In this document: one piece after another, positions 49,101 through 64,000 of the stretch | Numbering within the stretch: the first letter of the stretch is position 1 | Layout of the letters: each line of letters opens with the position of its first letter | Source: an uncultured Planctomycetia bacterium | GTDB lineage: Bacteria > Omnitrophota > Gorgyraeia > JABMRG01 > JAFGKX01 | Direction: 5' to 3' | Assembly: GCA_964570585.1 (NCBI GenBank) | Contig: CAZMYR010000001.1 | Coordinates: forward strand, 17,441-81,440 | Length of the DNA: 64,000 bases | Program-made: the position numbers and the translations under genes | Notes under the pieces: model-generated | What the model was told of the DNA's origin: nothing | What the model saw: only the letters and a program-made list of their open reading frames with translations | Databases searched by the model: none

Positions 49101-52100
49101 CAATCAATAACGATTTCAGCTGGCGTCTGTTCGCTTACCTGTGGCGCGTGTATGATATTATCTATTGCCCTTGAAGCCAAAAGTGTGCAATAATCGAGCA
49201 ACTGTTTTGGCGCTTCTGCCACATTAATCTCTGCTTTTGTATAAGCAACACCTTCATGCTGGCTCTGCGCTACAACCGCAGCAGGCGCTGAAGCAAGCAT
49301 AGAAACACCCATAGCAGGCATAAGAATTGCGTTTAGCGCTTTTGTTACTTTCTCGGGGTCTCTGGCTAAGTGGCTTAATCTGCTAAACCCTACTTTGGCT
49401 ATGTTAAGTTCGACCAGGGCATCTGTAATTGCTTTTCTGAAAGCAGGTTTCTGTTCATCAGGTAGTATTTCGGAAGGGATCTTGAAAATCATGAGGTCGA
49501 TTTCCGGCTGGGAGAAGAATCCTCCGTCTTTCGGCGGAGAATGGGCCTGCATCTGTTCTAAAAATTCCTGCATAAGCCTGTGTTTGCCGGCAGCCTCTGC
49601 CAAAACATTAAATGACAGCTGCAATGGGTTTTGCGTTCCCGTTACATTATCTTTAAAATTTTTGACAGCATTGCGTATAGATTCGGAAACATCTCCAAGA
49701 CCTGAAGCTGATAAATTGCGTATAGACCCGTTAAATGTCCATGCCTGGCTTTTGGCAAGATGGGAATAGTCTAATCTCTTTTCCATTCTTTTTGTTATAA
49801 TCGCCTCTGTGCGAAATCCCAACCAGGTTGCTATCCCAAGAAGCGACAAAGCGGTTATGCCTTTTATTATAAATAAAACTGTGCCTGAAATTGCCAACGG
49901 TACTGCCCAGCCGCCAACAAATAAAAGCACTATTCCCAAAATTGCTCCGGCGGCTATCATGACCGCCCTGGCATTAAGTGCAGCCGCCCTGCCCACATAA
50001 GCTAACCTGCTTATTCTTTTAGCCTCTGTTTCACCTTTTATAATAGCCTCGTTTTCTGCAATTCTCTGAGAAAAACGCCACTGGGACATCATGAGTAAAA
50101 CACCTTGAATGGCAAAAAGGCCCATTATAGGATAGCCGATAATTGCTAAGATTCCACCCCCGGATATGCTGCCTGCTGCAATAGCCGCTGTGACGGAATT
50201 AATTACAAAGGCGCCGAAAAGTGCTGTTAAACCAAGCCCCAGGAAGCCTATTAAGATACCAGCACCAAATCCTGCTATAATCATCCATCGGTTTTTAGCA
50301 ATAGAATCATTACTGTATGCGAAAATCCTATATGCAAGAATGCCTCCCAATGCAACTGCTGAAAGTCCTGGCACAAAGAGCATAAGAGCTGATGCCTCTA
50401 CTGCTGCAACCAGTAAAGCAGAAACCCCGAGGGTAGTTAAAAACCCTCCGATAAACGCTCTAAAAAACCTCTTTGGCGTGCTCATAGGTAATCTGGGCGC
50501 CTGTGAAAGGTCTTTACGCGCAGTGCCCAGCAATGCTAAGGAAGATATAAGCCCTATAATGCCCAATACAGCTGATGCAAGAAAGAAAATTGCACCAACC
50601 GTAGGGGCGGTAAATGGCGCGGTTCCTACAAGCGAAAGCAGCGCCATAGCACCGACAAAAGGAGAAAATGTGGCCATTATTGTAAGTGTCTTTCTCCAGG
50701 TGGATAAACCAGCAGCCTCAAGTGCATCTTTCCATGTTGTCTGCTCGCCAAGGGCAATAGCATTTGCCATCTTTGCAGCAGCTGTATCTGTTTGTGAGAG
50801 CCTTTTAATTTGAGAATTTAGTGCCCATGTTATCATAATGGCCACAACCCCAATAACAACAAGCCCTACAGGCCCGGCAGCAAGTAAAACCGACAGGAGA
50901 TTGCCTATTACCGGCAGGCCTAAAGCTGTACCAACCCCTCCGACTGTAAGCGCTTTAAACACCCATCCTAAGAAAAACGCAAGGCCAATGTTAGCGGCAA
51001 TGGCAAAGGCGGCAGGGAGTATTTTTAAGGATGAACGCTTGAATCTGTCACCTAAGGAAATCTTTCTTTTTTTAGCCAGCTCTTTGGCTGCTTCTATTTG
51101 TTGCTGTTCTGGGGGGATTACGCCGGCAAGATGATGGGCAAGGGCTGTGACCTCTTTCCCCATCTTTTCCTCTCTTTGCCTTTCCATGGTTTTGTACGAT
51201 AGTGCTGTCAGGCGTTTTATTTCTCCATATATCTGCTGCGGATTGAGAAAGGTCCTTTCATATCCAGGGCGTGAAGACGCCTGCTGAAGTCTGTGTTTGC
51301 TTCTTCCTGCTTCATCAGTAAACTTCATCCACCCTTCGTGAATTATCTCCAGTGCCTTAGATTTAAGGTGATCTGTAATAATATCATATATTAGTTCGCA
51401 CGCCTTCGGCGGAGTAGCATCTTTCTCTAATTGCAGCTCTGCCTTCAGAAGAGGGAGGATATCTTTCCCAAATTCCGTCTCCATAAAACGTAAGATATCT
51501 TCCCTTGAAAGCGTGGCTTTTTGGCTCCCACCTATAAAATTTGTAGCTGCCTTAACTATCCTCTGTGCAATGGCGTCCAGTATTTCCTTTTCAATGAGCG
51601 GTGCTATGCCATGGCGAACTATTTGAAGCCTGAATTTAATCTGCGGCATATTGAATTCTTTCCCTGTAAATTTGCCGAATTCGATTTCCTGGCGCCTCAT
51701 ATTTTGCTCATGGTCATTAATGGCCTCTCTCATCTGCTCAATAACTTTTAAGTTTTCTTTGGCTTCCTTAGATTTTTCAGAGTCAAGATTAAACTTAAGG
51801 TCATATACCTGCGCACCTTTTGTCTTTCTCTCAAAATATCCGAGTTCTTCCTGGATAATATTGCGGTATTTTATGAAAATGTCATCCTTCAGCGACCAGA
51901 CACCTATCCAAAAACCGATTTTACCGTTTCTTGCAACCCTGCCTCGGAACTGTATATCCTCTACGGTCAGAGGACAGTAGGTAGATATAGCAACCATTTT
52001 ATCGCCTTTAAAATCTACGCCTCTTCCACTTAAGTTTGTAGAAACAATTATGACATTCTTATATTTAGATAATTCCTCAACCATATCCTTCAGCTGATAA

Positions 52101-57106: not shown

Positions 57107-57815
57107 CTGACCCTAACCCCCTTGGAGCATTAGTCCCCTTAGAACTTAAATCTGAATATCGGCCTGTTTTTAGGGTAAGCCTTCAAAAGATTTATGATGT
57201 TTTTTTCACATTTTTTAAAGACTTTTTTAACTGGCGTAATAAGTATACCATATAAATGCCTGATTGTCAAGGGTTCCTGTGATTTTTTTGCTTGGTCTGC
57301 CCTGCTAAGAAAACTCAGCTTTTGGCAGGTCCGGAGATGCTGTTTAGAAGCTTTTCAAATGCTGTTTATCGACTGAACTTTAATTAATCTTTGTTATAGC
57401 TTATATATTGTATTGCAAATATTATAAGCCCAAACCTCACTGATGTCAAGAATTTTTTTAAAAAATACAGACGTTTCCCAACTCAATCGGGAAACTGCCC
57501 CATTTTCAATCGGGAAAGTGTACCCTGCCATGATACACCAAAACCGAGGAGCATTATGGAGCGAGACATTAGGAATTTTTTGCTATACAAAACGCCATAA
57601 GCGAAGCAATCACCTATGAGCAGTGATAGCATTTTTTTAGCATTTTACGAACGAGAATGAGCGAGCCCCGAAGGTTCGGGGCGAGCGAAGGAAAGTTTGT
57701 GTTTGAGCCCGAACACATCATAAGATGTGAGGGCGAGTTAAATTTTCCCGAAGTGAGTAAAATGCGTGCCAAAGGCAAAAAATGCGTGCTGCGAGTAGGT
57801 GATTGCTGAGCACGT

Positions 57816-57837
57816 AACCGTATCATAACCGTATCAT
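57816..57837. repeat. Perfect tandem direct repeat 2 x AACCGTATCAT
   Basis: Seen directly. A second direct pair AAAATGCGTGC is at ~57759-57769 and ~57779-57789. A hairpin GCCCCGAAGGTTCGGGGC is at 57665-57682. Confidence 0.5.
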
Positions 57838-57889: not shown

Positions 57890-57917
57890 TCTCAAAATTC
57901 TATATAGAATTTTGAGA
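57890..57917. promoter_or_regulatory. Perfect 28-bp palindrome TCTCAAAATTCTATATAGAATTTTGAGA (candidate dimeric-repressor operator)
   Basis: Its reverse complement is identical to itself. It lies in the ~1-kb spacer between the divergent giant gene and the brnTA operon. Confidence 0.45.
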
Positions 57918-58074
57918 CAATTGTCCTAAAAATTCAAGTATTTTTAAAGAATTGCTCATCGGGATACTCCTTCTCGGTAAAATTATGGGAAAAGGTGAAA
58001 ACGCCCGCACGGTAGCATTAAGGTTAAGTTAACTTTTGTGCCAGGAGTTAGGGGGGGGTATCAGGTTGAGAATA

Positions 58075-58100
58075 AAAAAATTAAAATTAAAATTAAAATT
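58075..58100 (+). promoter_or_regulatory. (AAAATT)n A-tract array immediately upstream of the -35 box (UP-element-like)
   Basis: aaaaaattaaaattaaaattaaaatt. It is preceded by a G8 homopolymer at 58051-58058. Confidence 0.35.
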
Positions 58101-58104
58101 GTTG

Positions 58105-58133
58105 TTGACAAAGGGCACACATTGTGTTATATT
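58105..58133 (+). promoter_or_regulatory. Sigma70-type promoter TTGACA-17 nt-TATATT driving brnTA
   Basis: -35 box at 58105-58110 and -10 box at 58128-58133, with consensus spacing. Confidence 0.55.
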
Positions 58134-58438
58134 TATATGCATTGAGGTATTATACGTGGAATGATGAAAAAAATAAAAAGTTAATCGTAGAACGAAATAT
58201 CTCTTTTGAAGAAATAATTTTCTATATTGAAAAAGGTTGTTTGCTTGATACTTTAGACCACCCAAACAAGAAAAGATATAAGAGGCAACGCATATTTGTG
58301 GTGAGAGTAAAAAATTATGTTTACCTTGTACCTTTTGTTGAGAAAGAGAAAAACATTTTTTTAAAGACAATTATTCCTAGTCGTAAGGCTACGCGAATAT
58401 ATTTAAAGGAGGATAAAAAAAATGGCCAAACTAGATAA
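58124..58438 (+). CDS. brnT: BrnT-family (DUF497) ribonuclease toxin
   Basis: WNDEKNKKLIVERNISFEEIIFYI ... IFVVRV ... KTIIPSRKATRIYLKE matches BrnT hallmarks (WD..K...N..KH.ISFEE and RIISARKAT). The track start is GTG at 58124, which overlaps the -10 box. An in-frame TTG at 58142 is the more likely, leaderless start. Stop TAA at 58436-58438. Confidence 0.75.
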   Translation: MLYLYALRYYTWNDEKNKKLIVERNISFEEIIFYIEKGCLLDTLDHPNKKRYKRQRIFVVRVKNYVYLVPFVEKEKNIFLKTIIPSRKATRIYLKEDKKNGQTR

Positions 58439-58694
58439 AAAAGAAAAAGCAATCCTTAAATCCTATGAGAAGGGAGAGTGGCGGTCAGTAAGGAACTTAA
58501 AATCAAAATTGAAAGATTATAAGATGTACGCAAGGGCAACTCTTAAAAAAGATAAACGAATAAATATTAGAATACCTTCACAGGATTTAGAAGGAATTCA
58601 AAGAATAGCTATTGAGGAAGGGCTTCCTTACCAAACTTTTATAACAAGCATTCTTCATAAATATGTTACAGGAAGGCTTAGGAAGGCCGGCTAA
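58422..58694 (+). CDS. brnA: BrnA-family antitoxin
   Basis: AAAGGAGGA lies 8 nt upstream of the ATG. The start overlaps the brnT end by 17 nt. KRINIRIPSQDLEGIQRIAIEEGLPYQTFITSILHKYVTG is close to the BrnA consensus (RISIRL...DLE.IK..A.EEGIPYQTLI.S.IHKYV.G). Toxin-first gene order is typical of BrnTA. Confidence 0.8.
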   Translation: MAKLDKKEKAILKSYEKGEWRSVRNLKSKLKDYKMYARATLKKDKRINIRIPSQDLEGIQRIAIEEGLPYQTFITSILHKYVTGRLRKAG

Positions 58695-58695
58695 T

Positions 58696-58716
58696 AAAAG
58701 GGGACCGTCCCCTTTT
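58696..58716 (+). terminator. Rho-independent terminator after brnA (AAAAGGGGACCGTCCCCTTTT)
   Basis: 5-bp GC stem with a 3-nt loop, flanked by an A-run and a T-run. Confidence 0.65.
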
Positions 58717-58729
58717 ACCTAAATTTAAA

Positions 58730-59100
58730 AACTTCTATTATATCTCAAATGGTCCTGGAGGCCTTGACAGTCAACTACCCCACGCCTAAAGGTGGAGGGC
58801 TTGTGAGAATAAGCCTGGTTGACTAGGGGGCATTGAAAGATGCAGAAGTTAAGAGAAAGAAGGATAACCAACACACCTACGGTTATTACGCACGACCGTA
58901 GCAACTGTGGTCTGTCATTAAACAGCCCTGAGGGTAGGGACAGTGTGGCAGGCTTAAAAACCTCTCTTAACAGCCCCGATGCGTCTCTAACTGCGAGTCC
59001 CGCCCTTTTACAAAAGGGCGGGACGAGAGGACACGCAGGACAGAACCCGAGGGTATCTGTCGTTTACCCCCACACCAAAAGTTTTGGTGTGGGGGTTTAT
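58730..59100 (+). ncRNA. Candidate omega-RNA (OMEGA guide/scaffold RNA) upstream of, and overlapping, the iscB start
   Basis: Strongly structured. Perfect 13-bp hairpins GTCCCGCCCTTTT/ACAAAAGGGCGGGAC (58997-59024) and CCCCCACACCAAAAG/TTTTGGTGTGGGGG (59067-59095). The track's 5' extension of the iscB ORF (58840-59088) translates to low-complexity, non-protein-like sequence. The extent is approximate. Confidence 0.4.
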
Positions 59101-60315
59101 GTCCTCAGTAAAAAGGGCAAGCCACTCATGCCCTGTTCGCCAAGAAAGGCAAGAGTGCTTCTCAAAGAGACCAAGGCAAGGGTTGTAAAGAGGGCTCCCT
59201 TCACAATAAAGCTTAATATCGCCACGGGAGAAGCAGAGCAACCGATTACTCTTGGTGTTGACAGCGGATACAACTCATTGGGCTTATCAGCAGTATCAAA
59301 AGATAAAGAGCTTTATAGAGCTCAAGTAAGGCTAAGAGAAGACTTGGTAAAACTTAATTCAGAACGAAGGCAGTATCGCCGGGGGAGGAGATACCGCAAA
59401 ACATGGTACAGAAAGCCCAGATTTCTTAACCGAAAGAAACCCCCAGGATGGTTGGCACCTTCCATCCAGCACAAATTGGACTCACATATCAAATTAATCA
59501 CCAAGGCCAAAGAGATACTGCCCATTTCAAAGATTAGTATTGAAGTGGCAGCATTTGACATCCAAAAGATTAAGAACCCTGACATTGAAGGCGAGGGTTA
59601 TCAAAAAGGCAAACAGGCGGGATTCTGGAATGTAAGGGAGTACGCACTTCACCGGGATAACCACCAGTGTCAGCACTGTAATGGCAAATCCAAATCCTCG
59701 GTATTGGAGCTACACCATATCATATCAAGACAGACAGGAGGAGACAGACCTGAAAATCTGATAACTTTATGTTCTATCTGCCACGATAAGGTATCAAAAG
59801 GCCAATTAGAACTTAAAGCCGAACCATCCAAGGGATTCAAAGCTGAAACCTTTATGTCAACAGTTAGATGGAAGTTGATTAATAAGCTGCGAGACTCTGG
59901 TAATATGGTAACACACACTTATGGTTATGTAACAAAAAGCAAGAGGATAGAGTTGGGGATACCAAAAAATCACACCAACGATGCCTTTGTGATAGCAGGT
60001 GGGACTACTCAGAAAAGGACAACATCGGAAGATTTCATCAAACAGGTCAGAAGGAGTAACCGTAAGTTGTTTAAAGGAGACAGGAGTCAGATAAGGAATA
60101 CGGCCGAGAGGTTTGTCTGTGGATTTCAGAGGTTTGATAAAGTGCTATACAATGGTGTGGAGTGCTTCATTTTTGGCAGAAGAAAAACAGGCTATTTTCA
60201 TCTAAGAAAATTGGATGGAACTAAAATTCATTCTTCAGCAAAACAAACAAAGCTAACTCTGCTTGAGAGCGCAAAAACTTTACTGATAGAAAGAAGGCTG
60301 GCTCTCCTCCCCTGA
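59089..60315 (+). CDS. iscB: IscB RNA-guided nuclease (PLMP domain, split RuvC with inserted HNH)
   Basis: The proposed GTG start at 59089 gives MGVYVLSKKGKPLMPCSPRKARVLL, the PLMP motif. Other motifs: RuvC-I LGVDSGYNSLGLSAV; Arg-rich bridge helix RRQYRRGRRYRKTWYRKPRF; RuvC-II ISIEVAAFD; HNH CQHCNG...LELHHI...NLITLCSICH; RuvC-III NHTNDAFVIAGG. The track ORF is 58840..60315; stop TGA at 60313-60315. Confidence 0.75.
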   Translation: MGVYVLSKKGKPLMPCSPRKARVLLKETKARVVKRAPFTIKLNIATGEAEQPITLGVDSGYNSLGLSAVSKDKELYRAQVRLREDLVKLNSERRQYRRGRRYRKTWYRKPRFLNRKKPPGWLAPSIQHKLDSHIKLITKAKEILPISKISIEVAAFDIQKIKNPDIEGEGYQKGKQAGFWNVREYALHRDNHQCQHCNGKSKSSVLELHHIISRQTGGDRPENLITLCSICHDKVSKGQLELKAEPSKGFKAETFMSTVRWKLINKLRDSGNMVTHTYGYVTKSKRIELGIPKNHTNDAFVIAGGTTQKRTTSEDFIKQVRRSNRKLFKGDRSQIRNTAERFVCGFQRFDKVLYNGVECFIFGRRKTGYFHLRKLDGTKIHSSAKQTKLTLLESAKTLLIERRLALLP

Positions 60316-60346
60316 ACCTTTTGGCAGGGGTTTGCGAGCCGGAGTT

Positions 60347-60374
60347 TTTCAATGAAGCGATTATAGGGTATAAT
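60347..60374 (+). promoter_or_regulatory. Candidate promoter of fic (TTCAAT-16-TATAAT), bracketed by 13-bp direct repeats AATGAAGCGATTA at 60351-60363 and 60385-60397
   Basis: Consensus -10 TATAAT at 60369-60374. The repeats are seen directly. Confidence 0.35.
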
Positions 60375-60407
60375 TATATCAGAAAATGAAGCGATTAGAG
60401 GTGCTAA

Positions 60408-61535
60408 ATGATTTACATATGGAAGCAAAAAAAATGGCCTCAGTTAAAATGGCAAAGCGATAAACTGCTGCCATCTTTAAGCCAGGCACGCTTCCTTCAA
60501 GGGGAACTGTTAAGCAAGATCCGTTCTCTGGGCTTAAACCAGGGCAAGGAACCAAGTGCTGAAATACTGGTAGAGGAGACTGTTAAAACCGCTGCTATTG
60601 AAGGAGTCCGGCTGGATAAGGATGCTGTGCGTTCATCCGTAGCGAGAAGATTAGGCCTGCCTACAGCAGGTTTAAAATCACCAGATAAAGACGCAGAAGG
60701 CCTTGTCAGCGTGCTCCTGGATGCTACTAGAAATTATAAAAAACCACTTACTGTCAAACGCTTAAAATCATGGCAGGCGGCACTATTTCCGACAGGTTAC
60801 TCAGGGCTTTCTAAGATAAGGGTAGGAAAATGGCGTGGAAAAAGTCCGATGCAAGTAGTCTCAGGACCTATTGGTCGTAAGAGAGTTCATTTTGAGGCCC
60901 CGCCATCAGAAAGAATAGATACAGAAATAAAAAAGTTCATAAAATGGTGGCAGAAACCCCCAAAGAACTTAGACAGCTTATTAAGGGCAGGCATTGCCCA
61001 TTTCTATTTTGTTACCATTCATCCTTTTGAAGATGGCAATGGCCGTATAGCCAGGGCATTAACAGATATGGCCTTATCTCAGGATGAGAATCTTCCAAAG
61101 AGGTATTATTCTCTTTCAACCAGTATAATGGCAGGAAGAAAGGCATATTACGATATCTTGGAGAAATGCCAAAGAGGCACGCTTGATATAACAGAATGGC
61201 TGTTGTGGTTCCTGAAATTCTATTTAAAGGCAATTGAGGAATCAGAAAAGGCTATTCAAAAATCATTGCAAAAGGCAGAATTTTGGCAAAAGCATGCTCA
61301 AACCAACCTGAATAATAACCAACGGAAAGTAATTAATCGCTTGCTTGATGCCGGTCCAAGTGGCTTTATAGGAGGCTTAACCACGCGAAAATACGTAGCA
61401 ATGACAAAGACAAGCAGGGCCACGGCTTATAGGGATATCTCTGATCTGGTAAGAAAGAAGATACTGGCTCGCTCTAAAGCTAAAGGCAGAAGCGTCTCCT
61501 ACGAGCTCATCTTTGTTGAAAAATTACAGACGTAA
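60408..61535 (+). CDS. fic: Fic/DOC family protein (AMP-transferase-type Fic domain with DUF4172-like N-terminus and C-terminal wHTH-like tail)
   Basis: The Fic active-site motif HPFEDGNGRIARAL (HxFx[DE]GNGRxxR) is present. The N-terminus MIYIWKQKKWPQLKW is typical of DUF4172-Fic proteins. GAGGTG lies 6 nt upstream of the ATG. Confidence 0.8.
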   Translation: MIYIWKQKKWPQLKWQSDKLLPSLSQARFLQGELLSKIRSLGLNQGKEPSAEILVEETVKTAAIEGVRLDKDAVRSSVARRLGLPTAGLKSPDKDAEGLVSVLLDATRNYKKPLTVKRLKSWQAALFPTGYSGLSKIRVGKWRGKSPMQVVSGPIGRKRVHFEAPPSERIDTEIKKFIKWWQKPPKNLDSLLRAGIAHFYFVTIHPFEDGNGRIARALTDMALSQDENLPKRYYSLSTSIMAGRKAYYDILEKCQRGTLDITEWLLWFLKFYLKAIEESEKAIQKSLQKAEFWQKHAQTNLNNNQRKVINRLLDAGPSGFIGGLTTRKYVAMTKTSRATAYRDISDLVRKKILARSKAKGRSVSYELIFVEKLQT

Positions 61536-61621
61536 AATATATCGCATCGTTAAATTTACTCTACGGCTGGACATAACCCGACCCGACCGTAATGGCTAGG
61601 GGGGGCATTTTTGGTCAGGTA

Positions 61622-62806
61622 TTATTTTTCTTTTTTCTTTTCTTGCACAAATTTCCTCTGAAGATAATCTACGACTTGTTTAAACTTGTAAAGCCTGTCG
61701 GCATCCTCATCGGGAATATCAATGCCAAGCTCTTCTTCAAAGGTCATTGCGATTTCAATGCTGGCTAAAGAATCCACACCTAAATCCTTTACAAGATGGG
61801 CATTATCATGGATTAAGTCTTTTGATATGCCTAATTGTTCCGCGATAATTTTTCTGGCTACATCCGGAATATCTTCTTTCGTTATCTCTTTTTTCTTTTC
61901 TTCCGGCGGTTTAGGAGACGCTTTATATTTTAGTCCGAGCGCCGGTATTCTAACAGCTTTATCTGTCTTAAAATATAAGTTGTTTTTTATGGCAGTGTCT
62001 CTTACTAATCTACCGAGTTTATCTAACCTAACATCAACTGCCGGAGGAAGATTTGAGAGATTAATCCCTTCTGTCTTCTCGTCCTCTGGTTTATTACTGT
62101 AAACAATTATATCTTTCGGTTTATCGTCCGATTTAGTTATGGCTTTATATATCTCACTTTTAGCCCCTAGCACTATTTGATTCCCTAATACAATATCAGG
62201 CCTGAAATTGTGAAGCTCTTTTTTTATGTCTTCTTCTACCCCCCCTATTTTGCTTGAATCAAATGTTTTGACGCCTACGAACAACATCTGCATTGAGTAT
62301 TCACCGCCGCATTTTTCTTTACTCTCAAAATATATGTTTTTAGGAACAAAGTAGTTAAGAGCAAGGTCTATAAACAAAAGTTTCGCCTTCGGCATTATAT
62401 AAGGATCATTATATATAGGGATTTCTTCTTTTTTAATTATTCTTCTGCCTTCTAAAACATCTTTTGCTGTCTCAACTATAGTATTGGGGCTAAATGGTTT
62501 TGCCATAAAGGCATCATATTTAAGCCCCTTTACTTTTTCTTCATATTGTTCACCATATCCTGTTAAAATTACAACTTTTGTTTTTGGGTACTTTTCGTTT
62601 ATTATCTCTAAAACACCAGGGCCGTCTAAACCTTTCATTTTCATATCTAATATGACAAGGTCGATACCTTTTGATTCTAGTTTCTTCACGGCTTCTTCGC
62701 CGGATAAGGCAATAGCTACACTATGGCCTTCTTTTGAAAAGAAATACTCAAGGGTAGATGTAAGTTCTTTTTCATCGTCTATAACAAGGATATTTTCATT
62801 TGGCAT
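61622..62806 (-). CDS. Response regulator receiver domain fused to an unknown middle domain and a C-terminal acyl-carrier-protein (phosphopantetheine-binding) domain
   Basis: REC domain: ILVIDDE...DLVILDMKMKGLDG...KPF. C-terminus: IAEQLGISKDLIHDNAHLVKDLGVDSLASIEIAMTFEEELGIDI is a classic ACP helix-II DSL motif. No DNA-binding output domain was recognised. Confidence 0.7.
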   Translation of the reverse strand: MPNENILVIDDEKELTSTLEYFFSKEGHSVAIALSGEEAVKKLESKGIDLVILDMKMKGLDGPGVLEIINEKYPKTKVVILTGYGEQYEEKVKGLKYDAFMAKPFSPNTIVETAKDVLEGRRIIKKEEIPIYNDPYIMPKAKLLFIDLALNYFVPKNIYFESKEKCGGEYSMQMLFVGVKTFDSSKIGGVEEDIKKELHNFRPDIVLGNQIVLGAKSEIYKAITKSDDKPKDIIVYSNKPEDEKTEGINLSNLPPAVDVRLDKLGRLVRDTAIKNNLYFKTDKAVRIPALGLKYKASPKPPEEKKKEITKEDIPDVARKIIAEQLGISKDLIHDNAHLVKDLGVDSLASIEIAMTFEEELGIDIPDEDADRLYKFKQVVDYLQRKFVQEKKKEK

Positions 62807-62825
62807 CTTTTTGCTCCTTATGTTT

Positions 62826-64000
62826 TTATATAGCTGGTAAAGTTATTTTAAAATATGTTCCTTTGCCATATTCCGATTCAACGTCAATTGTTCCTTTATG
62901 GTTTTCTATCATTGCTTTTATCACAGATGAGCCTATGCCCGTGCCTTTTTCGGTTGTAGCTTTGGTAGTAAAAAATGGTAAAAAAAGCTGGTCCGATTCC
63001 TCTTTTGTCATACCAATACCATTATCGGATAACTCTATACGCCAGAGATTGTTATCTGTAAAAGCCTTTATTTTTGTTTCAGGTATATAATCTTTTTGGT
63101 TTTGTTTCTTTTGTTGTTCCGCATCATGAGCGTTGTCTAAGAGATTAAAGAATATATCCTGAAGTTGCGCCATATCACCTTTTATTTTAAGGGGCGTTTT
63201 CTCTACATCGGTTTTGAGATTAAGTTCTGTAATATCGAATTTGTATGATAAAAGTTCAATAGTTGCAGTTATAACCTCATCGAGATCGACTAGCTTATAT
63301 TTTGTCTCCTTCCGGGAAAATACTGTTAAGTGTTTGGTGATGTTGCCTCCTAAATTAGCGTTTTCTGCAATGCTTTTCATTGCTTTTTCGGCTCTTACCA
63401 AGAAAGTTTTATTCTCATTGGATAAACTTACTTTTTTCATTCCATCCTGCATAATATCAAGTGCCTCTTCTGCTTTTGCCCAGATGGCCTGAAAACGGTT
63501 GTTAATTTGATGCCCCATCATAGAACCCATCTGTCCTATAGAGCGAAGCCGGTGTTCATGAAACTGCTGGGCTAGAGATTTTCCGGTTTCTTCATAAAAT
63601 ATGGCATTTTCAATGGCTAAAGCTGCCTGATTAGCCAATACCTGAAATACTGCTAAGTCATCTGATGTATACATATCGCCTGAGAGTTTCTTGCCCATTG
63701 CCAGGAAGCCTATTAACTCATTTTGGATGAAACTAGGAATTATTATATCAGCTTGCATGTCTTTCATGTTTTTAGCTATGTTCTTTCCCTCCGGCATAAG
63801 AGCTGCCTCATCATATATTAAAATGTCCCTATGGCCTTTAAGCCATTTTATTAAGGGTATGTTGCTTTGTATCTTCCCTGCAGGGAGATTTGATATATTT
63901 TGTCTGTTTCTTTTTGCCCTTAGGTTATATTCGTCTGCTTCGGGATTTCGTAGATATATATAAGCATGACTAACACCAATGGCTTTGCTCATTACGCGTA
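62826..64000 (-). CDS. GAF-domain sensor histidine kinase (HisKA + HATPase_c); may extend beyond the window end
   Basis: H-box FHEHRLRSIGQMGSMMGHQINN, N-box LLDNAHDA, G-boxes DNGIGM and GTGIGSSVI. The first ATG is at 63990-63992 and no stop lies between it and 64000. The gap to the downstream regulator is 19 bp. Confidence 0.75.
   Translation of the reverse strand, partial: RVMSKAIGVSHAYIYLRNPEADEYNLRAKRNRQNISNLPAGKIQSNIPLIKWLKGHRDILIYDEAALMPEGKNIAKNMKDMQADIIIPSFIQNELIGFLAMGKKLSGDMYTSDDLAVFQVLANQAALAIENAIFYEETGKSLAQQFHEHRLRSIGQMGSMMGHQINNRFQAIWAKAEEALDIMQDGMKKVSLSNENKTFLVRAEKAMKSIAENANLGGNITKHLTVFSRKETKYKLVDLDEVITATIELLSYKFDITELNLKTDVEKTPLKIKGDMAQLQDIFFNLLDNAHDAEQQKKQNQKDYIPETKIKAFTDNNLWRIELSDNGIGMTKEESDQLFLPFFTTKATTEKGTGIGSSVIKAMIENHKGTIDVESEYGKGTYFKITLPAI

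Follow-up and report, generated by a model that had tools for sequence, protein, structure and literature searches.

Within a 64,000-nucleotide stretch of contig CAZMYR010000001.1 (the window throughout), from an Omnitrophota-like uncultured bacterium, an IscB transposable element with its guide RNA is inserted into the promoter of a gene for a Fic protein. The Fic gene and the element follow a BrnT/BrnA-type toxin-antitoxin pair (BrnTA), and the three occupy 58.1-61.5 kb, the sole plus-strand coding block of the window. The original prediction took this 3.5-kb block for a horizontally acquired insertion. The features it listed are all present in or near their predicted places, and the three units are accessory or mobile in type: IscB is a demonstrable insertion, and Fic shares only the gene and its promoter with the closest orthologues. 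That the whole block was a single insertion is not shown, and the IscB element came separately and later. The actual order is BrnTA, then the 5' half of the Fic promoter, the IscB element and the 3' half of the Fic promoter, and then Fic. We assign a probability of about 0.8 to the block being a mosaic of three independent accessory units, with the IscB element having landed inside the Fic promoter. Its components all belong to known families and behave as the literature predicts.

The insertion is revealed by orthologous loci that carry no IscB. Alignment of the upstream sequences in four of these (L020, L021, L022 and L023) displays an uninterrupted Fic promoter, which reads CCTGGAGGCCTTGACA|ATGAAGCGATTATAGGG TATAAT ... 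AAATGAAGCGATTAGAGGTGCTAAATG and has consensus -35 and -10 hexamers separated by a 17-nt spacer. The Fic promoter of the window is split at the bar: its left part ends at 58769 and its right part resumes at 60352. The empty site reconstructed from the two parts agrees with L020 in 18 of 20 nt ahead of the junction and in 58 of 59 nt beyond it. There is no target-site duplication, and the junction is ambiguous by 2 nt. The insertion point lies exactly between the -35 hexamer and the first operator half-site of the Fic promoter. Because the joined flanks reproduce the orthologous uninterrupted promoter, this comparison shows the element to postdate Fic and to have arrived on its own.

The inserted unit is delimited by its relatives. 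Five independent related elements share DNA similarity with the window from exactly 58770 to ~60351-60356 (Table 1). Both the omega-RNA and the protein exceed the cutoffs of their families, which bears out the predicted presence of an IscB element. The scaffold matches HEARO (RF02033) with 119.7 bits against a gathering score of 83, over model positions 1-211, the full model, and its fold stability reaches z = -6.8. The protein scores 359 bits on the NCBIfam guided_IscB model (cutoff 175) and 214.6 bits on RRXRR, with HNH also matched. It carries the PLMP motif, split RuvC, bridge helix and HNH expected of the family, and in alignment with OgeuIscB the catalytic residues of RuvC I/II/III and HNH are intact: D (LGVDSGY), E (ISIEVAAF), HH...N...H and D (HTNDAF). 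The 1,582-bp element has no room for the Y1 transposase TnpA, and none is encoded among the large open reading frames (ORFs) of the window. Approximately 98.5% of iscB genes have no tnpA nearby (Meers et al. 2023, bioRxiv 10.1101/2023.03.14.532601). By its sequence, the unit is a self-contained non-autonomous IS200/IS605-type element, the common form. In the IscB clade (window 58840-59125; L016, L017, L018), the only canonical in-frame starts upstream of PLMP lie within the omega-RNA, an ATG ~70 nt and a GTG ~175 nt from the right end, and the ORF and the guide RNA therefore overlap. The additional hairpins of the window element preserve the iscB frame, since their lengths of 30 and 33 nt are multiples of 3.

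Table 1. Features of the plus-strand block and its flanks, in window coordinates
Feature	Position	Strand	Remarks
TAGGGGGGG, left copy, rare 9-mer	58049..58057	+	flanks plus-strand block
Second, weaker promoter-like site near brnTA	58066-58093		
(AAAATT)x4 A/T tract	58077..58100	+	period 6, 4.0 copies, 100% matches; just upstream of brnT -35, UP-element position
brnTA promoter-like site TTGACA-17-TATATT, extended TG	58105..58133	+	11/12 positions
BrnT-like toxin gene	58142..58438	+	98 amino acids (aa) from TTG; start uncertain, no Shine-Dalgarno sequence
BrnA-like antitoxin gene	58422..58694	+	90 aa, C-terminal ribbon-helix-helix, strong GGAGG Shine-Dalgarno sequence
Perfect 11-bp-arm palindrome TAAAAGGGGAC-C-GTCCCCTTTTA	58695..58717	.	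directly 3' of brnA stop; terminator-like
Displaced upstream half of Fic promoter CCTGGAGGCCTTGACA, the 16-nt omega-RNA guide	58754..58769	+	-35 at 58764-58769
Non-autonomous IS200/IS605-type IscB element	58770..60351	+	1,582 bp; 58770 is transposon right end, 60351 left end
Omega-RNA scaffold (HEARO)	58770..58991	+	RF02033; conserved sequence runs on to ~59065
Lineage-specific 30-nt hairpin insertion	58997..59024	+	in loop of 3' omega-RNA hairpin; reading frame kept
Lineage-specific 33-nt insertion	59066..59096	+	perfect 15-bp palindrome then TTTAT; creates GTG 59089
iscB ORF	59089..60315	+	408 aa from GTG 59089; frame open from ATG 58840 (491 aa)
Nested subterminal hairpin, left end	60298..60342	.	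compensatory changes among six elements, 3 covarying pairs
Element terminus TTTTCA, now in Fic -35 position	60346..60351	+	original 17-nt spacing to -10
ATGAA (TTCAT on minus strand), target-adjacent motif	60352..60356	+	abuts left end
Retained downstream half of Fic promoter and 5' untranslated region	60352..60407	+	
First half-site ATGAAGCGATTA	60352-60363	+	Fic promoter
Fic -10 TATAAT	60369-60374	+	
Degenerate inverted half-site	60371-60381		Fic promoter, over -10
Second half-site	60386-60397	+	Fic promoter
Shine-Dalgarno sequence GAGGTG of Fic	60398-60403	+	
Class II Fic gene: DUF4172, Fic domain, winged helix-turn-helix tail	60408..61535	+	inhibitory helix TAAIEG; active-site motif HPFEDGNGRIAR
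TAGGGGGGG, right copy	61597..61605	+	62 nt past Fic stop, 17 nt from regulator stop

The arrangement of guide and target follows the pattern described for other iscB elements. According to Meers et al. 2023 (bioRxiv 10.1101/2023.03.14.532601), the right end of the transposon gives rise to the omega-RNA scaffold; the guide sequence lies immediately outside the element, so that its transcription must begin in flanking DNA; the elements are strongly biased toward the orientation of the upstream gene; and a left-end motif, TTCAT for GstIscB, is required by the transposase and by the nuclease. The window element resembles the ISGst5-type elements of Geobacillus stearothermophilus in being non-autonomous, in having a HEARO scaffold that starts at the right end and a guide made of flanking DNA, in the TTCAT abutting its left end, in a right-end motif (TTGAC) two positions off TTCAT, and in its co-directional insertion with the upstream gene; its expected role would likewise be the cutting of donor joints for element retention. 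It differs in its Omnitrophota-like uncultured host, in its insertion into a core promoter and not between genes, in two extra hairpins near the iscB start, in the iscB frame of its clade, which is open through much of the omega-RNA, and in its relatives, where the iscB stop and the next host gene's start codon overlap. The L020 locus contains a perfect 16-nt target of the guide followed by ATGAA, and the window contains none. The guide-side motif of the window, GTCAA (equivalent to TTGAC), differs from TTCAT at two positions, and the element's own locus is expected to be protected because of this difference. Element boundaries, guide, target motif and intact catalytic motifs can all be identified from these alignments.

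These observations are consistent with the following course of events. The IscB element inserted beside the TTCAT target motif within the core promoter of a pre-existing Fic gene. With the omega-RNA scaffold beginning at the transposon end, the 16-nt guide is CCUGGAGGCCUUGACA from the flanking DNA, which forms the upstream half of the Fic promoter. It would be transcribed from outside, by read-through from brnTA or from a weak promoter-like site at 58714-58741. IscB and its omega-RNA would then cut the uninterrupted Fic promoter next to ATGAA, be it the donor joint after excision or an empty allele. Excision would depend on a transposase supplied in trans, and repair from an element-bearing copy would restore the element. 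Fic is now probably expressed from a weaker hybrid promoter (TTTTCA, 17 nt, TATAAT), from iscB read-through, or from both; TTTTCA matches the -35 consensus at 4 of 6 positions, and the hybrid site scores 10/12 in the promoter scan. We infer guide transcription, IscB cleavage, retention and the effect on Fic expression from this arrangement.

Genes for Y1 (IS200-like) transposases of 206-233 aa are found in two related loci (L020 563-1222 and L018 4087-4707), situated 0.24-1.3 kb upstream of the intact Fic promoter in L020 and of the IscB element in L018. These are candidate trans-acting transposases in the related genomes.

Several points weigh against the proposed course of events. The promoter-like site that might drive the guide matches only 9 of 12 positions, and the terminator-like palindrome after brnA may block read-through into the guide. 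The four uninterrupted comparators are orthologues with 81-95% protein identity, found in other genomic contexts in different species. A transposase for the element was not found within the 64-kb window. With two lineage-specific hairpin insertions near the iscB start, and an iscB that stops 12 codons before the stop of its relatives, the element could be immobile or decaying. Its activity and the effects on Fic expression enter the reading as predictions. Joint arrival of BrnTA and Fic, finally, may be hinted at by the flanking TAGGGGGGG copies and by a BrnTA-Fic pair in another locus (L067).

It is accordingly conceivable, if unlikely, that the IscB copy is an inactive relic, fixed at its site and no longer guiding cleavage or moving. 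The window lacks a Y1 transposase and keeps no target for the guide; the second of the two hairpin insertions is terminator-like and stands directly before the shortened ORF. However, the ORF is intact with all its catalytic residues, the HEARO match spans the full model well over the threshold, the lengths of both insertions are divisible by 3, and the first is placed in the loop of a hairpin. A missing tnpA is the condition of nearly all iscB genes, as stated above, and Y1 transposase genes are close to the related loci L018 and L020.

The relatives of the element provide a view of its target choice. IscB homologues number in the thousands at ~70% identity and occur in Clostridia, Bacteroidales, Geobacteraceae, Methanoperedens and Nanoarchaeota, a breadth that is, judged from these matches, the signature of a widely transferred element. 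An exact-pattern search of viral contigs for the right end of the element yielded nothing; relatives were recovered by a protein-based scan. Five independent relatives, at 83-90% protein identity and 83-88% DNA identity, are located after ABC-transporter permeases, between fumarase and RNase PH, inside an ATP synthase operon, after tsaD and between unknown genes, and none of the five has BrnTA or Fic nearby. The upstream flanks of the elements are mutually unrelated. The downstream flanks read ATGAAG, ATGAAA, ATGAAT, ATGAGA, ATGTAA and ATTTTA, with ATGA(A/G) or ATGTA at the left-end flank in four of the five independent relatives. Of 17 relatives examined (loci including L017 2582, L018 7449, L104 4449, L118 2736 and L111-L120), 13 have a co-directional ORF of at least 60 aa whose start lies -4 to +65 nt from the iscB stop. 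In four of these the iscB stop overlaps the host start codon within ATGA. The host genes concerned encode RNase PH, ATP synthase b/delta, an IMP dehydrogenase-like protein (recognised by eye from its N-terminus) and one unknown product. The element terminus places a GGAG- or GAGG-like sequence 6-8 nt before the host ATG.

This suggests, tentatively and at somewhat less than even odds, that the IscB clade is adapted to insert precisely at start codons while leaving the operon undisturbed. If so, the target motif ATGA(A) would double as the host start codon and, in several relatives, as the iscB stop, and a suitably spaced Shine-Dalgarno-like GGAG or GAGG would come from the last 10-20 nt of the element. 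Transcription of the guide RNA would be provided by the host gene upstream, and translational coupling of the downstream gene would be preserved. On this reading the same terminus could, as in the window copy, also replace a -35 hexamer when ATGAA lies in a promoter.

The Fic protein downstream of the element has a complete active-site motif, HPFEDGNGRIAR, which fits HxFx(D/E)GNGRxxR, in agreement with the predicted Fic assignment and the conservation of its catalytic residues. Homology places it among the class II enzymes of the CbFic2/SoFic/CccR type. It aligns with CbFic2 of Coxiella burnetii (PDB 8CIL; PMC10628234) over its full length with 413.8 bits, covering residues 3-372 including the helix-turn-helix at 304-362, and it matches DUF4172 with 91 bits. 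The inhibitory helix TAAIEG aligns with TSAIEG of CbFic2 and fits (S/T)xxxE(G/N) on the same polypeptide, and the protein is predicted to be an autoregulated enzyme. The full length is matched by the PADLOC-DB defence model for SoFic (PDLC03963, 161 bits), listed as a single-gene anti-phage system; a defence role of the window Fic is putative. On the NCBIfam SoFic equivalog it reaches 57.8 bits against a cutoff of 550, and by these scores it is a family relative of SoFic and not its orthologue. A FicT/FicA-type toxin (class I Fic) with a partner antitoxin is ruled out by the inhibitory motif in cis and by the absence of any small ORF adjoining fic. Of the suggestion that BrnTA or Fic serve as addiction or abortive-infection modules, the part that made Fic an addiction toxin falls with this cis inhibitory helix and the DNA-binding tail.

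The winged-helix tail of CbFic2 binds DNA and switches the enzyme between AMPylation and deAMPylation, and the existence of a specific DNA site was left open by its authors (PMC10628234). Yersinia CccR and SoFic each bind the promoter of their own gene, no more than ~100 bp from the start codon, and the footprint of CccR reads AGATAATCAT-N26-ATGATAATCT (PMC9755527). Unlike in these two systems, promoter binding, protein substrates and any secretion are putative for the window Fic, and its promoter has lost its -35 to a transposon.

The Fic promoter contains an array of repeats that is independent of the transposon. The predicted 13-bp direct repeat bracketing the promoter was recovered as AATGAAGCGATTA at 60351-60363 and 60385-60397, on either side of the TATAAT at 60369-60374. 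Its origin as a transposon product is ruled out, as orthologues without the element carry both copies. We surveyed 72 non-identical upstream regions of Fic relatives with 59-95% identity, allowing at most one mismatch. The core GAAGCGATTA was found in 71 of them; 58 regions have it twice in direct orientation, with a spacing of exactly 34 bp in 56 cases, and an inverted copy covers the -10 in 43 of the 72. The layout of the family is thus direct, inverted over the -10, direct, with TGAAGCGATTA as the half-site in Omnitrophota and relatives (L020-L103). Alphaproteobacterial plasmid homologues at 50% identity (L107, L108, L109) keep the layout with the half-site TGCGGTGA(A/T)T; their 34-bp spacing was read by eye in the two promoters checked (L107, L108). 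Judged by this distribution, the repeats are a conserved operator-like array belonging to Fic and not to the IscB element. The array fits an operator bound by the DNA-binding domain of Fic itself, because the half-site changes with the protein lineage. Fic probably represses its own promoter through binding of the winged-helix tail to the TGAAGCGATTA array. The principle of own-promoter binding is already known from CccR and SoFic, and the array would represent its form in this family. Its two direct half-sites, separated by 34 bp and accompanied by an inverted copy at the -10, differ from the CccR footprint given above.

The toxin-antitoxin pair upstream of the element is more divergent. BrnT/BrnA reportedly constitute a type II toxin-antitoxin system of Brucella abortus, said to have been described by Heaton et al. 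in 2012. As predicted, a BrnT-like ORF (58124/58142..58438) precedes a BrnA-like ORF with a 17-nt overlap, and the TTGACA-17-TATATT promoter stands at 58105-58133 behind the (AAAATT)n tract at 58077-58100. The BrnT-like protein matches Pfam BrnT_toxin (PF04365) at model positions 1-75 of 77 with 31.3-31.5 bits, below the gathering score of 34.5, and no toxin model of NCBIfam matches it. The BrnA-like protein reaches 27.7 bits on CopG_antitoxin, just under the gathering score of 28, and 17.7 bits on the NCBIfam BrnA model, whose cutoff is 60; its identity to a BrnA of 117 bits is 33% over 45 aa. A full-library search returned 2,249 BrnT-related cluster representatives, and 43 of 60 aligned close homologues match BrnT_toxin at E of 0.001 or better. 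The single BrnT sequence found no match among the solved structures of the PDB, and only the profile of its homologue family reached one, matching the toxin 7VD7 over the full length (E = 3e-5). The window BrnT retains all 17 invariant or nearly invariant positions of the family. Its best plasmid homologues, 50% and 48% identical for the two proteins of the pair, are adjacent, annotated BrnT/BrnA and in the same order. Since the family profile, the conserved positions and the annotated plasmid pair agree, we accept BrnTA on sequence grounds as a divergent but genuine BrnT/BrnA-type pair, forming a free-standing operon upstream of Fic.

Likeness to the Brucella system extends to the toxin-first, bicistronic operon with overlapping ORFs, the end-to-end match of the toxin to the BrnT_toxin model and the C-terminal ribbon-helix-helix of the antitoxin. 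The window pair differs as a divergent subfamily with Pfam scores just below threshold and a TTG toxin start that has no Shine-Dalgarno sequence. Many BrnT homologues align from their first residue to TTG 58142, ~8 nt past the -10, and GTG 58124 falls within the promoter. The start is therefore more plausibly the TTG than the GTG, with some uncertainty.

The plus-strand block stands between large minus-strand regions. Four very large minus-strand ORFs, one of 10,643 aa, occupy positions 1-57106, and a kinase gene and a regulator gene, likewise on the minus strand, occupy 61622-63992. The claim that everything else in the window is on the minus strand is correct for ORFs of at least 200 aa with one exception, a 215-aa plus-strand frame at 50166..50813, antisense within the 10,643-aa ORF, which is taken to be spurious. 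Homologues of the regulator and of Fic are labelled Candidatus Omnitrophota in the source records, and JGI sample 3300031624 includes a contig identical to this one. No close relative of the host was found in the searched collections: the nearest homologues of the flanking regulator are 40-48% identical, and a contig scan with the regulator returned only generic receiver domains at 27-42% identity. In L014, the one long contig among them (regulator at 44%), a kinase accompanies the regulator, but the giant gene is missing and the genes downstream are others.

Composition gives little indication of foreign origin, and the proposed GC check of the block, taken together with codon usage, came out without a clear foreign signal. 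Its GC content is 0.37-0.45, against 0.35-0.49 elsewhere in the window. The codon-usage z-scores are +1.0 for BrnTA, -2.1 for IscB and -1.8 for Fic; BrnTA is host-like, IscB and Fic are only mildly atypical, and there is no clear compositional anomaly. This would suit a history in which BrnTA and Fic are long-resident chromosomal genes, only IscB was inserted and the strand switch is incidental, as would the wide occurrence of this Fic family in Omnitrophota and the absence of detected mobility genes in the block. We regard such residency as rather doubtful, given the evidence on the other side. Around the four closest Fic orthologues (81-95% protein identity), the neighbouring genes on either side are altogether different. 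DNA homology among the orthologues (80-95% of nucleotides) begins ~17 nt ahead of the -35 and breaks off ~25 nt short of the stop codon; on the promoter side it ends within ~20 nt. Fic has relatives at 95, 91, 89 and 86% identity, against 48% for the nearest homologue of the neighbouring regulator, and close homologues of the BrnTA pair occur on plasmids.

BrnTA and Fic are more readily seen as genes of the flexible genome that are prone to cluster; that they arrived together is possible but unproven, and we think it improbable. The same low likelihood attaches to a single acquired island between the TAGGGGGGG copies (~58058-61596), set between the regulator gene and the leader of the giant gene, with BrnTA as its addiction module and IscB either already aboard or a later arrival. 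The block is the only plus-strand coding block in 64 kb, and the 9-mer brackets it closely. TAGGGGGGG has 3 copies in the window, all within 4.2 kb, against 0.53 expected, a count reached in 0 of 100 shuffles, and its two plus-strand copies are the only plus-strand runs of at least 7 G in 64 kb. The third copy, however, is on the minus strand at 62239-62247 in the regulator coding sequence, where it encodes Gly-Gly-Val. No inverted repeats were seen inside the flanking copies by visual comparison of the two ends, no repeat search having been run. The window has no detected tRNA, and the domains found in the ORFs of the block include no integrase, recombinase or transposase family.

Recurrence of the BrnTA-Fic arrangement could also speak for an island. 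In L067, a DUF2442 gene, a canonical BrnT (73.5 bits), a BrnA (117 bits) and Fic lie between groES-groEL-groES and gatCAB, with BrnTA directly upstream of Fic; L021 and L022 carry another small gene pair in that position, and the Fic orthologues share no flanking homology. Yet the BrnT of L067 has no detectable similarity to that of the window, and on this evidence the adjacency is an independent recurrence and not the inheritance of a BrnTA-Fic module. The ORFs upstream of Fic in 46 loci are heterogeneous, and domains of toxin-antitoxin type were confirmed only in L067 (BrnTA, DUF2442) and L099 (DUF2442), 10 of the ~70 ORFs having been scanned and the remainder judged by size and by eye. As BrnTA, the L021/L022 pair is ruled out by identities of 28% and 24%, poor alignments and no Pfam match. 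Together with the host-like codon usage of BrnTA, the only mildly atypical usage of Fic and the demonstrably independent movement of IscB, these results favour the mosaic of separate units over one island. In L023 (2876-10755), a co-directional ORF of >3,496 aa, cut off by the end of the locus, comes after a Fic orthologue with 81% identity. This is the sole other case of Fic beside a giant gene among the 76 orthologous loci scanned.

The region between the giant gene and brnT contains further structured sequences. An element of ~220 nt at 57595-57815, between the brnT promoter and those of the giant gene, is closed by a 19-bp imperfect inverted repeat (57605-57623 / 57789-57807) and folds with -97.3 kcal/mol on the plus strand (z = -10.8 against shuffles) and -80.3 kcal/mol on the minus strand (z = -9.9). 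Nothing in Rfam matches it, neither the window nor the fetched loci contain a second copy, and it is directly followed by 2.1 copies of the 11-nt tandem repeat TAACCGTATCA (57815-57837). On the minus strand at 57900-57959, a micro-ORF of 19 codons, MSNSLKILEFLGQLSQNSI, preceded by AAGGAG 8 nt upstream, is divergent from brnT and upstream of the giant gene. Its stop codon is at the centre of a perfect 14-bp palindrome (57890-57917) that is followed by a T-run and forms a minus-strand terminator. Two near-perfect sigma-70-type promoters on the minus strand, at 57421-57449 (12/12) and 57242-57270 (11/12), face the gene of 10,643 aa. Four of the seven perfect palindromes in the window with arms of at least 10 bp are located within the 1.2 kb of 57890-59096, and three of these four share GC-rich arms around a central A/T tract. 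On the other side of the block, the minus-strand response regulator (61622-62806) has a C-terminal phosphopantetheine-binding (acyl-carrier) domain, a fusion also seen in several homologues at 40-48% identity; other members of the set are named Omnitrophota.

For annotation, these results mean that the window Fic is not to be read as an addiction toxin, and that the block is not to be called a single island on present evidence. The insertion provides a clean natural example of IscB in an uncultured phylum, with empty sites identifiable in orthologous genes. Its guide, target motif, boundaries and order of events are readable directly from the DNA, and they agree with the retention model developed for Geobacillus. 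The conserved, lineage-dependent array is a concrete candidate for a DNA sequence that CbFic2-type enzymes would bind specifically, and is relevant to them in that their switch between AMPylation and deAMPylation is DNA-dependent. Own-promoter binding being known for CccR and SoFic, the finding of the Fic array extends existing work on this family.

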